Assembly (NCBI GenBank): GCA_965224185.1
Contig: OZ245042.1
Coordinates: 5,146,761 to 5,210,760 of the forward strand
Source: Rhodobiaceae bacterium
Lineage (GTDB): Bacteria > Pseudomonadota > Alphaproteobacteria > Rhizobiales > G965224185
Direction of reading: 5' to 3'
Length of the DNA stretch: 64,000 nucleotides
In this document: positions 10,248 through 18,733 of the stretch, in pieces
Numbering within the stretch: position 1 is the first letter of the stretch
Layout of the letters: each line of letters starts with the position of its first letter
The notes under the pieces: generated by a model
Seen by the model: the letters and a program-made list of their open reading frames with translations, nothing else
Databases searched by the model: none
What the model was told of the DNA's origin: nothing
Program-made: the position numbers and the translations under genes

Positions 10248-11429
10248 TCACACCCGAACAACCTTCAGTTTTGTTTTCAGGTCAGTGCGGCAAAAGGCGT
10301 GCAGGAAGCAAGTCTGCTCACTGATATCCAGCATCTCCCGCGCGGTCTCGTCACTCTCACCGGTTTTCAGATAGACATGGGTTTCGATCGGATCCGCTTC
10401 GCCGGCCTTGCCGGTGCCACCGCTGGCGCCGCCGAGGCTGAAATGGGTGTCCTGGACGATGCGGTAGTCCGGCAGATCGAGTTTCAGCATGGAGACGAAG
10501 CGACCGAACTGGGTCATGAAGCAGAAGCCGATGCCGGCGCTGATCAGGGTATTAGCGTCCGGCGCCCGACCATCCTCCGAACTCAGGAACCGGAACGACG
10601 TCCCATGGGGCGAATACTGCATCTGCTGAAGATCTTTGAGCCCGTCCTCGCGCAGCTCTGCCACGGCGCCGATATTCAGCCGGCGATCCTGTTCATCCGC
10701 CAAGGACGAACCGCCGGTCGCCGTTCCTTTGACGACGTCTTTTTTTGGCGTTGGTCCGACCGGTTCCATTAGGGCGAGATTGCTTGGCGCCGGTTGCGCC
10801 TTGGCGAAGTGGTTGCCGGGATCAGGAAACAGGGGAGCGCCCAATTCAGCAACCTTCGCCGTCGACAGCTCCTGGCCGTTCTTGCCCAGTTTGAACAGGC
10901 TTACCAACTGCCCGCGCATTAAACCGTTGAGGGGGGATGCATAGGTGGCGTTGATCAGGAATTCGTTTAGATCCTTGTCGCCCAGGTCACAGTCGATCTC
11001 GACCTGCAGCTCGATATTCTCCGCGCCGCCGACCATGGTGCGCTTCGGCATGGATCCCTTCATTGTGTAATAATTGTCCTGGATCAGCTTTAACTTACGT
11101 ATCTCGATGCCCTGCAGATCCGCCAGCGCCACGATCTCGTTCATGAAGCTTGCCACCATGCCGGTCGAAAGAAACGCAAGCGGACATGGGGCGGCGTCGT
11201 GGCCGTTCAAATACGGCCCTTCATCGGACACCAAGCGCCACGTATCTCCGGTTTTCGCTGACCGTATCAGCGCTTCTTTCTGAAATCCGCTGAACGAACG
11301 CACCCATGTGCGCAAGGCATCGCCCTTTCGATTCTCAGGTGCGTTGATACTGACATCACCGGTATTGTCGACTTTGAAGAATGGCGGCAGGCCGCTTGTG
11401 CCGATGATGTCCTCACCAAGTTTTTCCAC
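10248..11429 (-). CDS. Tandem OsmC/Ohr-like domain protein
   Basis: 393 aa. The first half has SDEGPYLNGHDAAPCPLAFLSTGMVASF. The second half has ANTLISAGIGFCFMTQ...EQTCFLHAFC. Both are OsmC-like cysteine-containing patterns. This is the last gene of a long minus-strand operon. Confidence 0.55.
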   Translation of the reverse strand: MEKLGEDIIGTSGLPPFFKVDNTGDVSINAPENRKGDALRTWVRSFSGFQKEALIRSAKTGDTWRLVSDEGPYLNGHDAAPCPLAFLSTGMVASFMNEIVALADLQGIEIRKLKLIQDNYYTMKGSMPKRTMVGGAENIELQVEIDCDLGDKDLNEFLINATYASPLNGLMRGQLVSLFKLGKNGQELSTAKVAELGAPLFPDPGNHFAKAQPAPSNLALMEPVGPTPKKDVVKGTATGGSSLADEQDRRLNIGAVAELREDGLKDLQQMQYSPHGTSFRFLSSEDGRAPDANTLISAGIGFCFMTQFGRFVSMLKLDLPDYRIVQDTHFSLGGASGGTGKAGEADPIETHVYLKTGESDETAREMLDISEQTCFLHAFCRTDLKTKLKVVRV

Positions 11430-11430
11430 G

Positions 11431-11715
11431 TTAATCTTCCCACTCGATTATCAATGTTTCGCGAAATGCAAAGCGTTCAAGATGCGAGACAAGAACCCGC
11501 TTAAGCCTTGCCAGGTCATTGTCGTTTTGAGCCTGGGCGGTCATATTCAATCCGCCTGGGCCCACCTGCAGATCGGCCCGCCCAAATTCAAAAGTGATCC
11601 GGCCGGTCTCGGGCGTGAATTCGACATCGGTTTTGTGACCGAAATGCTTGCACAATTGCTGGAGATAGCCGCTTGCCTTCGCGGTCTTGATGGTGACGGA
11701 GGCCGTATGGCTCAT
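11431..11715 (-). CDS. DUF2218 domain protein
   Basis: 94 aa. A.GYLQQLCKHFGHK....F....G.I.F..G...L......L.....A.....L..L..V...HLERFAFRE matches the DUF2218 pattern as I remember it. It ends 1 nt before the OsmC-like start. Confidence 0.65.
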   Translation of the reverse strand: MSHTASVTIKTAKASGYLQQLCKHFGHKTDVEFTPETGRITFEFGRADLQVGPGGLNMTAQAQNDNDLARLKRVLVSHLERFAFRETLIIEWED

Positions 11716-11844
11716 GGTTCAAGCCTTTCGGGAACGTCCCCGACATTGACCATGTCGTATTTGTCCTCCATCAGCGTTTTCTGACCACCGGTGTCGGCGC
11801 CCGGGGGCATGAATGAACAGCGCTGGGACATAGTCCGGCGCCCC

Positions 11845-16789: not shown

Positions 16790-16803
16790 CGGATCAACTC
16801 TCG

Positions 16804-17565
16804 TCAGACTTTTGAAAAGTCTGGACACCACTTTAGGACACCTTGCCGGTAGCTTTCCTTGTCGTCGAAAGCGGCCGCCCAGCGTCGGATGTTCGGAAAG
16901 TCTTCGAACGAATAGCCGCAACCGAAGATCACGAAGTAAAGTGGGATCCATGAGATATCGGCCAGGGTGAACTGATCGCCCATGATCCAATCGCGCCCCT
17001 CCAGCGTTGCATCCAGCTTGGCGAAACAAGCCCCCAGTATTGCCTTCGCCTTCAGGAAATCACTGGTGCTGAATTCGCTGCTGCCGGCGTGCTTGGCATG
17101 AAAATTCTTCAGCTCTTCATTTTTCTGAAGCGAATCGTATTTTTCCTGTTCCTCGGCAGACTTCTTCAGTTTCTTGACCAACTTGGTCGCATAGACATAA
17201 GGCTTGCAGGCCGGCACATGGATCGCGGCGGCCAAATGCAGCCATTCCATCATGTCGTCATTGTCAGCGGCGCGCAGCGTCGGCTCTGGATAGGCTTCGT
17301 CCAGATAATCGATGATGTCGTTCGATTCGATGTGAACGACACCGTTGTCGATGAGTGTCGGCACCAGACCGTTCGGATTGATCCCGAAATAGTCGTCGGA
17401 AATGTTCTCTTTCTTCTTCAGATCGATATGATGGCTGGTCCAGTCCAGCCCCTTTTCGATCAGTGTCATGCGAACCCGCATGGAACAGTTCGAAATGGCG
17501 CCATGATACAGGTGCAGCCCCTTAAGAGACTCGACTGATTTGTTTGTCGGAACAATGACGACCAT
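16804..17565 (-). CDS. Glutathione S-transferase, paralog of 12615..13436
   Basis: LHLYHGAISNCSMRVRMTLIEKGLDW....ID..K.E.....YF.INPNGLVPTLIDNGVV..ESNDIIDYLD and FTLADIS align position by position with the other GST. The ATG at 17565 follows GGAGG. Confidence 0.7.
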   Translation of the reverse strand: MVVIVPTNKSVESLKGLHLYHGAISNCSMRVRMTLIEKGLDWTSHHIDLKKKENISDDYFGINPNGLVPTLIDNGVVHIESNDIIDYLDEAYPEPTLRAADNDDMMEWLHLAAAIHVPACKPYVYATKLVKKLKKSAEEQEKYDSLQKNEELKNFHAKHAGSSEFSTSDFLKAKAILGACFAKLDATLEGRDWIMGDQFTLADISWIPLYFVIFGCGYSFEDFPNIRRWAAAFDDKESYRQGVLKWCPDFSKV

Positions 17566-17722
17566 CGGAGGGCCCTCCATACCTTGGTGACCGATCTGGA
17601 AGCGTTTTGAGATTGGGTTGGCGCGCAACCCAATTTCGAAGCGCTGCGGAATTGGCGCCCCGGAAACGTGACTGGTTTAAATCTGCACGAATTGTCCGGG
17701 GCGCCTGCGCTCTGCTTGGGAG

Positions 17723-18733
17723 TTATTTGTTCAGCGCACCGTAAATCTCGCGGACATTCGAAATGCCGCGGCTTTCGTAGTCCGCGAAGATTGCCTCAAG
17801 CCCTTTGGCGACCGCGGCGTCCATCTTGGCCCGCTCTGCGTCCGAAACCACGGTCCATTTGTAGCCCTTATCAGTAGTTTCAGCGATAAGCTTTTTGGAG
17901 ACCTCGTCGGCACCGTCGAACGACTTTGCAAGTTCAAGCGACATCGGCAGGCCGGCAACGTCGTCGATGATTTTGCGGTGCTCGTCCGAGAGGCTCATAT
18001 AGCGCTCTTTGTTCATGATGGCGTAGGTGACGGCAAAGGTCGCGGGCACATTTTCAACGATGTAGGAAGACACGTCCCAGAAGTTCCAGGGCTGCGTGAT
18101 GTTGTTGTAGGACGCCGTGGTTGCGTCGATGGTGCCGGTCGATAGCCCGGTATACATCTCCGTCACCGGCATCTGTACCGGAACCGCGCCCAGCGCTTCG
18201 ATGATCGGGGTGGTCATGGCCGCGAAAGGAACGATCTTGGCGCCTTTCATGCCCTCCATGGTCGACACGTCACGAGTTGCCGCGAAAAGGTTTCCCGCAA
18301 CCGTGCCGACGGCCAGAACCTTCACGTCTTCATATTCGTCTGCGAGATGTTCGTCGTAGATGTTCCAGATGGCCCGGGTGGACTGATCTGCGTTCTCCGC
18401 CTTGCCCGGCAGGATGGCCAGCATGGTCTTCGGGAAGAGCGCAGGTGTGTAGCCCGAAACACCGAAGGTGATGTCGGCAACGCCCTCAACGGCGCGCTTG
18501 TACTGCTGTACCGGACCAGCGCCCAGTTGACCCGCCGGGTAGAGTTTCATGGTCAAAGTGCCGCCGGAGCGCTTTTCGATCTCCTTGGCGAACCAGGTGA
18601 ACATGCCGGTGTTGGTGTGGTGCTGTGGCGGCAAGAAGGTCGCAACGGATAGCTCTTCACTGGCTGCGGTTTGCACGGAAAGACCAAGCCCGATTGCGAA
18701 CGCCATAGGCACCGGGAAACGTGAGAAATTCAT
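17723..18733 (-). CDS. dctP: TRAP transporter substrate-binding protein (DctP family)
   Basis: 336 aa with a signal peptide (MNFSRFPVPMAFAIGLGLSVQTAAS), a DctP-like body and an SD aggagga before the ATG at 18733. Confidence 0.9.
   Translation of the reverse strand: MNFSRFPVPMAFAIGLGLSVQTAASEELSVATFLPPQHHTNTGMFTWFAKEIEKRSGGTLTMKLYPAGQLGAGPVQQYKRAVEGVADITFGVSGYTPALFPKTMLAILPGKAENADQSTRAIWNIYDEHLADEYEDVKVLAVGTVAGNLFAATRDVSTMEGMKGAKIVPFAAMTTPIIEALGAVPVQMPVTEMYTGLSTGTIDATTASYNNITQPWNFWDVSSYIVENVPATFAVTYAIMNKERYMSLSDEHRKIIDDVAGLPMSLELAKSFDGADEVSKKLIAETTDKGYKWTVVSDAERAKMDAAVAKGLEAIFADYESRGISNVREIYGALNK

Follow-up and report, generated by a model that had tools for sequence, protein, structure and literature searches.

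A conserved gene cluster of marine Proteobacteria that combines glutathione transferases, TRAP importers and sulfatases with a candidate GntR operator

We analyzed a 64,000-nt stretch of DNA from a Rhodobiaceae bacterium (contig OZ245042.1; hereafter the window, with all coordinates given as positions within it) that contains an apparent operon for a tripartite ATP-independent periplasmic (TRAP) importer, an aldehyde dehydrogenase (ALDH), two glutathione transferases (GST-A and GST-B), a short-chain dehydrogenase/reductase (SDR), a DUF2218 protein and a tandem OsmC-like protein. The first-pass annotation, made from the letters alone, had proposed nine minus-strand genes in a defined order. Listing and translation of the open reading frames (ORFs) confirmed that nine minus-strand ORFs fill 10248-18733 in that order, and in searches with Pfam and NCBIfam models, Pfam returned DctP, GST_N/GST_C, DctQ, DctM, Aldedh, GST_N/GST_C, adh_short, DUF2218 and OsmC, in agreement with all nine proposed families. 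The statement that every junction is 1-14 nt or an ATGA overlap held for six of the eight (-14 to +11 nt), but 157 nt separate dctP from the GST-A gene and 129 nt separate the SDR gene from the DUF2218 gene. From upstream to downstream, the tight junctions are GST-A to dctQ (11 nt), dctQ to dctM (-4 nt), dctM to ALDH (-14 nt, or about +19 nt if the shorter ALDH start of homologues is used), ALDH to GST-B (-4 nt, ATGA), GST-B to SDR (8 nt) and DUF2218 to OsmC (1 nt). The starts at 17565 (GST-A) and 13436 (GST-B) are backed by 100%-identical database proteins of 253 and 273 aa, respectively, while the DctQ start, read from the sequence, is probably a GTG near 16790.

The cluster is highly conserved. 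Scanning one genome per species yielded at least 200 loci, 80 of which were fetched; five more were taken from assemblies, and the 81 non-redundant loci analyzed, all from other species, were scored for each component by tblastn of the window proteins. The SDR gene was present in 79 of these loci, ALDH in 78, DctM in 64, GntR in 63 and the tandem OsmC gene in 61, followed by the sulfatase (44), GST-A (41), an alkylsulfatase-like protein of the metallo-beta-lactamase (MBL) fold (37), a cupin (22), a TAXI-type TRAP transporter (18-21) and DUF2218 (9). The constant core is a divergent gntR gene facing TRAP, ALDH, GST-B, SDR and OsmC genes, with GST-A, cupin and DUF2218 as accessories, and the gene arrangement is far beyond chance. 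A survey of gene neighborhoods, which had been suggested as a check on the first-pass annotation, thus found the ordered block recurring across the 81 loci, that is, with conserved synteny. The view that this is a conserved catabolic unit rather than a random set of detoxification genes is also upheld, ALDH, GST-B and SDR occurring together in 78-79 loci, usually with TRAP and tandem OsmC genes. DUF2218, by contrast, had been taken for a pathway component, a role that its presence in just nine loci does not support.

At least 200 species-level genomes carry the GST-B locus, and it also appears in metagenomes, those of Tara among them. Database relatives of GST-B number in the thousands; for the best 120, identity is 79-100% and the sources are Rhodobacterales, Roseibium, other Alphaproteobacteria, one gammaproteobacterium and Tara samples. 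Cluster proteins are 80-90% identical between orders, and the GC content is approximately 0.55-0.57 over 10-26 kb (0.607 in one 2-kb window) versus 0.60 or higher in the right flank. An integrase gene remnant probably marks the left edge of a genomic island. Together, the remnant, the low GC content and the high protein identity across orders suggest that the regulon has spread horizontally. No GST-B relatives at E <= 1e-40 were found in a plasmid collection, and a tRNA scan found none in the window.

The ALDH-GST-B-SDR module is duplicated in some genomes, with the two copies either about 2 kb apart on one contig (comparison loci L030 and L043, contig CBDCBG010000006.1) or in the same metagenome-assembled genome (MAG; L010 and L062). 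The SDR and OsmC orthologues fall into two classes of identity to the window proteins, ~70% and ~85%, which suggests subtypes for related substrates. One locus whose GST-B is 82% identical to that of the window (L080, contig CALDTK010000013.1) is labeled as a Saprospiraceae (Bacteroidota) MAG, probably reflecting a binning error or a recent transfer.

A shared palindrome and the extent of the regulon

The intergenic region between gntR and dctP contains three exact copies of a perfect palindrome, TGGGATCCCA (18771-18780, 18844-18853 and 18949-18958). One further exact copy, and one with a single mismatch, were found in the intergenic region between the sulfatase and MBL-sulfatase genes; the nine-gene block itself contains none. 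Across 82 sequences totaling 1.6 Mb (the window and related loci) we counted 144 exact copies, compared to a chance expectation of ~1.5. Nearly all of these (142 of 144) are found no more than 450 nt upstream of a cluster gene, and none is inside a labeled gene. The palindrome precedes the genes for GntR (61 loci), DctP (47), ALDH (14), the MBL-sulfatase (10), the sulfatase (9), GST-A (3) and the TAXI binding protein (3), and its extended consensus is tTTGGGATCCCAAa. The preferred distances between copies are ~63, 73-74 and 136 nt, close to integral helical turns (e.g., L001, 7506-7651, and L005, 3418-3623), which hints that the regulator binds cooperatively or by looping.

The GntR/FCD regulator, in every locus that has it, is encoded divergently from the operon. 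It has the features of its class, an N-terminal GntR winged helix, a C-terminal FCD domain and a palindrome at its own divergent promoter; its true start is possibly the ATG at 18977. A common palindrome precedes the GST operon, the sulfatase gene and the MBL gene; on comparative grounds, this argues strongly for control of the GST operon, both sulfatases and a second importer by the same FCD-type GntR regulator. The regulon extends over 10248-26145, beyond the nine-gene block, and the first-pass annotation, which listed neither the regulator nor its candidate operator, the two sulfatases or the second importer, was incomplete in this regard. ORF clustering across loci likewise showed that both sulfatase genes are recurrent; in the window they sit outside 10248-18733.

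The operator pattern would fit a single regulated promoter for all nine genes, and a single transcript is plausible. A scan for promoter and terminator consensus sequences gave counts equal to those in shuffled sequence and thus was uninformative about internal transcription signals. The 157-nt spacer downstream of dctP folds into two strong hairpins (-49.5 kcal/mol, z = -2.83) without a T-run, which likely have a role in mRNA stabilization or attenuation, yielding surplus binding protein; there was no Rfam match anywhere in 9-27 kb, these hairpins included. By blastn, both ends (5´ and 3´) of a cupin gene persist as remnants in the 129-nt spacer downstream of the SDR gene; the gene is intact at the equivalent place in L009, L015, L027, L069 and others, and the spacer therefore is a deletion scar. 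The intact cupin is 155-160 aa long in the 22 loci that encode it.

Table 1. Features of the locus, with positions in the window and the basis of each assignment.
Feature	Position	Strand	Basis
Tyrosine-recombinase (integrase) gene remnant, beside guaA (7594-9141)	9454..9987	+	Pfam Arm-DNA-bind_3, Phage_int_M; without catalytic domain
Tandem OsmC-like protein, 393 aa	10248..11429	-	Pfam OsmC, 58 bits; 61/81 loci
DUF2218 protein, 94 aa, accessory	11431..11715	-	Pfam PF09981, 106 bits
Cupin_2 gene deletion scar	11716..11844	-	blastn to intact cupin gene ends
SDR, 253 aa	11845..12606	-	Pfam adh_short_C2, 205 bits
GST-B, 273 aa, LigF-like, Cys-containing	12615..13436	-	Pfam GST_N/GST_C; start overlaps ALDH stop (ATGA)
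ALDH, start between 14872 and 14905	13433..14905	-	Pfam Aldedh, 517 bits
DctM, TRAP large permease, transporter 1	14892..16253	-	Pfam DctM, 313 bits; TIGR00786 above cut-off
DctQ, TRAP small permease, transporter 1	16250..16792	-	Pfam DctQ, 74 bits
GST-A, 253 aa, accessory GST-B paralogue	16804..17565	-	Pfam GST_N/GST_C
Two GC-rich hairpins in dctP to GST-A spacer	17612..17705	-	RNA folding
DctP1, TRAP binding protein	17723..18733	-	Pfam DctP, 121 bits
Three exact TGGGATCCCA copies, candidate GntR operator	18771..18958		gntR-dctP divergent promoter region
GntR/FCD regulator, divergent from operon	18962..19735	+	Pfam GntR and FCD
Second TRAP transporter	19792..22691	-	DctP2 21648-22691, DctQ2 21099-21584, DctM2 19792-~21090
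Type I (formylglycine) sulfatase, SpAS1-like, predicted cytoplasmic	22736..24373	-	Pfam Sulfatase PF00884
Operator copies, sulfatase/alkylsulfatase-like promoter region	24661..24731		24661-24670 exact; 24722-24731 one mismatch
MBL-fold protein, class III alkylsulfatase family, without SCP2 tail	24868..26145	+	Pfam Lactamase_B, Alkyl_sulf_dimr

Properties of the encoded proteins and neighboring genes

The two GSTs are paralogs, as had been noted earlier (27% identity, E 4e-28). The best PDB match of GST-B is LigF (4xt0; E 6e-26, 30% identity), with residues 4-248 aligned to 1-243, inter-domain insert included. LigF also ranked first in a Foldseek search with a GST-B model (pLDDT 70.8), barely above the phi, epsilon, Ure2p and GDAP1 classes. 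For GST-A, LigF was third among solved relatives (29% identity over 198 residues). The earlier assignment of both GSTs to the LigE/LigF type is therefore only partly sustained: LigF is the nearest solved relative of GST-B and shares its insert, but both proteins fail the curated beta-etherase model (NCBIfam NF042997, cut-off 440 bits), with a score of 18.3 bits for GST-A and no match for GST-B, and LigE was not among the top 60 listed solved-structure matches for either GST. The zeta isomerase model TIGR01262 (cut-off 171 bits) likewise gave scores of 85.7 and 81.9 bits, over the N-terminal half only. The GSTs had further been thought to form an enantiocomplementary pair, for which the same two results and the presence of GST-A in only about half of the loci leave little room; because GST-A is optional, a LigE/LigF-type pair is unlikely.

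The GST-B motif LYHHGSSVCAAK is found in 66 of 67 orthologues and the GST-A motif LYHGxISNCSMR in 33 of 35 sequences, the GST-A homologues being 253-254 aa long. Ser11 and Cys13 are invariant across both families, although this Ser-x-Cys motif is typical of zeta-class GSTs too and hence not specific. When aligned with LigF, the Cys lies opposite an Asn and the next residue is Ala in GST-B and Ser in GST-A (CSM versus NSL); we take the LigF Ser of this ANSLK segment to be the catalytic Ser13. A PcpC sequence of unconfirmed provenance, used as a lead only, gave 28% (GST-B, full length) and 25% identity.

The nine best PDB matches of the ALDH are all aromatic aldehyde dehydrogenases, acting on salicylaldehyde, 4-hydroxybenzaldehyde, vanillin or benzaldehyde (320-336 bits), and the solved relatives of the SDR are generic, FabG-like only. 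As had been suggested for the OsmC-like protein, each half matches OsmC in Pfam. The NCBIfam model NF041052, "OsmC-related (seleno)protein", was reached at 107.8 bits (cut-off 95) only by the summed halves (53.5 + 58), and no in-frame TGA was seen in the tandem OsmC orthologues. C303 and C374 lie in the C-terminal half; they are invariant in 16 homologues and presumably occupy the positions of the OsmC redox pair. The degenerate N-terminal half lacks a Cys pair. By sequence, no solved homologue of the tandem protein was found. DUF2218 matches a "hypothetical protein" in the PDB (2jpi, E 1.6e-15).

The sulfatase scores 615 bits against PDB 4upi, which is SpAS1, an arylsulfatase of Silicibacter pomeroyi without choline sulfatase activity (PMC5870055). 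Its Pfam domain, its maturation motif C52-G-P-S-R (C-x-P-x-R type) and this close characterized relative identify it, as far as sequence can, as a type I SpAS1-like sulfatase. Read by eye, the N-terminus leads straight into the conserved catalytic region and leaves no space for a signal peptide, so the enzyme is predicted to be cytoplasmic. The sulfatase gene lies directly downstream of the SDR gene on the same strand in 26 loci, often with genes for a second transporter after it; within the window, it heads a sulfatase-TRAP2 operon. The MBL protein has an Alkyl_sulf_dimr domain (E 6.5e-42) and an HSHRDH motif, and it matches SdsA1 (2cfu) with 197 bits over the catalytic and dimerization parts only, as it also does Pisa1 and YjcS over these domains. 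At ~425 aa, with the SdsA1 match reaching only residue 516 of 658, it lacks the SCP2-like domain that marks class III alkylsulfatases.

Transporter 1 is complete, with DctP, DctQ and DctM (PF03480, PF04290 and PF06808; TIGR00786 and NF037995 above cut-offs). For the second TRAP transporter, DctP2 was assigned by Pfam, DctM2 by tblastn and DctQ2 by similarity to a Pfam-annotated DctQ in L005; its genes lie downstream of the sulfatase gene, a place occupied by a TAXI-type TRAP in other loci. The best solved relatives of DctP1 are 7nr2, 5im2, 5iga and 5i5p, which we take to belong to an aromatic-acid-binding group. In an alignment of 76 sequences, with the arginine position set by an unconfirmed SiaP (R147) reference sequence, all 67 DctP1-family and all eight DctP2-family proteins have a one-residue deletion (GAKI-VPFA) at the position of the carboxylate-clamp arginine; a DctP1 Val aligns with the Arg of 7nr2. 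The earlier proposal of an imported carboxylate is weakened by this loss throughout both families. Tandem pairs of DctP1-type genes, present in roughly a dozen loci, hint at two related ligands.

Genes adjoining the cluster also bear on its function. Protocatechuate 4,5-cleavage genes (LigA, LigB, PrpF, Amidohydro_2 and RraA-like) are adjacent in seven non-redundant loci, which represent at least three different arrangements and lineages, and a 3-oxoadipate:acetyl-CoA acetyltransferase gene (NF053568, above cut-off) is adjacent in five. These ring-cleavage neighbors, well above chance in 20 kb, point to aromatic end products. A TauE-type exporter gene adjoins the cluster in five loci.

Genes for a PanB-like protein, a Rieske oxygenase and a DmdA-like aminomethyltransferase adjoin the cluster in two to three loci (L040, 312-3464, and L061). 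The last was dropped as evidence for aromatic chemistry because it scores as a dimethylsulfoniopropionate (DMSP) demethylase and not as an aryl demethylase (379.5 bits; DmdA cut-off 410), and the Rieske and PanB-like neighbors likewise were not counted. In the window, the island is adjoined by a corrinoid methyltransferase cluster (26320-33011, minus strand) followed by a TetR gene (33144-33845, plus strand). This cluster encodes an MtrH-like protein (302 aa), a URO-D-like protein (418 aa), a PaaE-like reductase, a HutI-like amidohydrolase and a 618-aa MtaA/CmuA fusion with two B12-binding domains (TIGR01463, 427 bits, above cut-off), in what we take to be the cmuB-cmuC-cmuA-paaE-hutI layout of chloromethane and methyl-halide utilization.

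A proposed pathway and its alternatives

We propose that the locus is a GntR-controlled catabolic regulon, spread horizontally among marine Alphaproteobacteria and some Gammaproteobacteria, whose substrate is sulfated and probably aromatic and is broken down through a glutathione-dependent step, a reading to which we give a probability of roughly 45%. The substrate would be a small phenolic or aromatic alcohol or aldehyde together with its sulfate esters. In this scheme, an effector would free the TTGGGATCCCAA operators at three promoter regions from the GntR/FCD regulator acting as a repressor, and the two arginine-less TRAP systems would take up the compound and its sulfated form. Sulfate would be removed by the cytoplasmic SpAS1-type arylsulfatase and the alkylsulfatase-like MBL enzyme, and the SDR would oxidize a side-chain hydroxyl to a carbonyl. 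GST-B with glutathione could then displace or reductively remove a substituent (ether oxygen, sulfate or halide) from a carbon that owes its activation to the carbonyl made by the SDR or to a quinoid tautomer, with aryloxide, sulfate or halide expelled and the product then released by a thiol. Such Lig/Pcp-type chemistry, the most economical for a Cys-containing GST encoded between an SDR and an ALDH, would have Ser11 and Cys13 of GST-B as candidate catalytic residues. GST-A, the tandem OsmC protein or both may assist in resolving a glutathionyl or mixed-disulfide intermediate, and the ALDH would convert the aromatic aldehyde to an acid destined for ring-cleavage pathways.

Several observations weigh against this proposal. 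The core has no conserved ring-hydroxylating or ring-modifying enzyme, and ring-cleavage genes are adjacent in only ~12 of the 81 loci. About half of the loci are without a sulfatase within 10 kb, so that sulfate esters may be just one entry route. SpAS1 has no assigned natural substrate, its designation as an arylsulfatase resting on model substrates, and the aromatic preference of the ALDH is modest (336 bits versus 308 for the next-best succinate-semialdehyde dehydrogenase). In the Foldseek search, LigF led other GST classes by little, and the AlphaFold model of the tandem OsmC protein has a pLDDT of 36.6 and a shallow alignment. The part given to this protein is purely inferred, and the identity of the substrate is itself a proposal.

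The first-pass annotation favored a beta-aryl-ether pathway of the Lig type, in which a carboxylate is imported, the SDR acts like LigD, GST-A and GST-B are the etherases, and OsmC and DUF2218 replace LigG. In line with this idea, LigF is the top solved relative of GST-B down to the shared insert, GST-A keeps a Ser aligned with that of the LigF ANSLK segment, the SDR and aromatic-type ALDH are invariant neighbors, and arginine-less binding proteins would suit neutral lignin-type dimers. We nevertheless consider it unlikely, given that GST-A is missing from 40 and DUF2218 from 72 of the 81 loci, that LigE is outside the top 60 listed solved matches for either GST, that both GSTs fall more than 400 bits short of the curated beta-etherase model, and that GST-B has Ala at the LigF Ser position with Cys one residue earlier. 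The missing clamp arginine speaks against a carboxylate, and the sulfatases would be left unexplained. An improbable but more specific version of the glutathione step is reductive dehalogenation of halogenated phenolics by PcpC/LinD-like GSTs, consuming two glutathione molecules per halogen. PcpC has Ser11 and Cys13, the latter needed for thiol-disulfide exchange, and the Ser-x-Cys motif is invariant in both GST families here, yet zeta-class isomerases share it and the PcpC comparison sequence is unconfirmed. The candidate substrates, at a guess, would be algal bromophenol sulfates such as lanosol-type bromo-dihydroxybenzyl alcohol disulfates. Desulfation of aryl and benzyl sulfates, SDR/ALDH oxidation of the benzyl alcohol to a benzoate and then dehalogenation would yield protocatechuate, an order that we hold to be equally improbable; it would account for two sulfatase types (aryl and benzylic esters), an aromatic-type ALDH and the protocatechuate 4,5-cleavage genes adjacent in seven loci. 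No halide-related or hydroquinone-forming enzyme, nor any hydroxylase, is conserved in the 81 loci, however, and some carriers belong to pelagic lineages (a Planktomarina MAG, Tara samples), for which the supply of red-algal compounds may be low.

The substrate might also be a non-aromatic organosulfate, a small aliphatic sulfate ester that is desulfated and whose alcohol is oxidized to an acid by the SDR and ALDH, with the GSTs and OsmC only protecting against a reactive aldehyde or enone. Alkyl sulfates such as sodium dodecyl sulfate and choline sulfate are classically degraded by a sulfatase, an alcohol dehydrogenase and an aldehyde dehydrogenase in turn, and the gene set matches this logic, as do the membership of the MBL enzyme in the alkylsulfatase family, the TauE-type exporter beside five loci and the good ALDH scores against semialdehyde dehydrogenases. 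Within the module, however, no gene is more constant than GST-B, and this constancy, along with a position overlapping ALDH on one side and 8 nt from SDR on the other, argues for a pathway enzyme and not a bystander; moreover, for ALDH, GST-B and the sulfatase alike, the nearest solved relatives have aromatic substrates, and ring-cleavage genes recur as neighbors. On balance, we regard an aliphatic substrate as rather unlikely. Stress regulons often include GST, OsmC, ALDH and SDR families, which would fit an island for defense against electrophiles or peroxides with no dedicated carbon source, but two high-affinity importers, two sulfatases, a metabolite-sensing FCD-type GntR regulator with a private operator and the extreme conservation of gene order argue for catabolism and make such an island highly improbable. 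The DMSP, dihydroxypropanesulfonate, isethionate, ascorbate and isoprene pathways were dropped because their signature enzymes are absent, as was the choline-sulfate pathway because SpAS1 lacks choline sulfatase activity.

Returning to a sulfated, probably aromatic, substrate, a fuller version would couple Lig/Pcp-type glutathione chemistry and the tandem OsmC protein to aryl- and alkylsulfatases and arginine-less TRAP transporters in at least 200 marine species, acting on an abundant sulfated, possibly halogenated or ether-linked, phenolic algal compound; this we advance as tentative and, in its entirety, doubtful. Much algal dissolved organic matter is processed by marine roseobacters and related bacteria, in which many conserved transporter-linked clusters have no assigned substrate. 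This regulon is well suited to follow-up given its strong conservation, sharp operator, two binding proteins and cultured carriers. Among the latter are Shimia abyssi DSM 100673, Sulfitobacter geojensis, Celeribacter halophilus, Oricola thermophila, Roseibium sp. AS2 and Hoeflea sp. AS16. Were the substrate identified, the marine cycles of organic sulfur and aromatic carbon would gain a route, roles could be assigned to SpAS1-type arylsulfatases, the LigF/PcpC-like GST clade and the tandem OsmC protein, and the ligands recognized by arginine-less TRAP binding proteins would be revealed. If the proposal is true, the orphan SpAS1 arylsulfatase family gains a natural context.

Comparison with known systems

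The first-pass annotation knew of no described pathway with this gene combination, and a literature search, limited in extent, found none. The component families are all known; as far as that search goes, what is undescribed is how they are combined, together with the operator, the arginine-less binding proteins and the wide distribution. Among characterized systems, the Lig pathway of Sphingobium sp. SYK-6 (LigD/L/N SDRs, LigE/F/P etherases, LigG lyase and aromatic ALDHs) resembles the cluster in its SDR, its LigF-related GST and its aromatic-type ALDH, and a thiol-dependent follow-up step is plausible. In contrast to the Lig enzymes, however, the GSTs described here fail the beta-etherase model, have no LigE-like partner and carry a Cys beside the LigF Ser position. 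A tandem OsmC protein stands where the Lig pathway has the omega-class LigG, two sulfatases and two TRAP importers are predicted to share one GntR operator, and the hosts are marine Rhodobacterales, Hyphomicrobiales and Granulosicoccus, not sphingomonads.

The PcpC and LinD dehalogenases (zeta/TCHQD-like GSTs) share the N-terminal Ser-x-Cys with both GSTs, but the homology rests on an unconfirmed PcpC sequence, and the cluster has neither a hydroquinone-making hydroxylase nor other pcp or lin genes. The isoprene iso cluster (IsoI/IsoJ GSTs, IsoH SDR and AldH) similarly has two GSTs, an SDR and an ALDH per operon and processes a glutathione conjugate; the present cluster differs in having importers and sulfatases instead of the IsoABCDEF monooxygenase and the IsoG CoA-transferase. 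With regard to transport, the best solved relatives of DctP1 presumably place it near TarPQM and other aromatic-acid TRAP systems, whereas deletion of the clamp arginine in every DctP1 orthologue implies another ligand or binding mode. Finally, the sulfate-ester systems (SdsA1, betCBA, and SpAS1/SpAS2 of Ruegeria pomeroyi) have in common with the cluster a sulfatase followed by alcohol and aldehyde oxidation. They differ in that GSTs and OsmC are integral here and the MBL enzyme is without SCP2, and the regulon may represent the pathway context for SpAS1.

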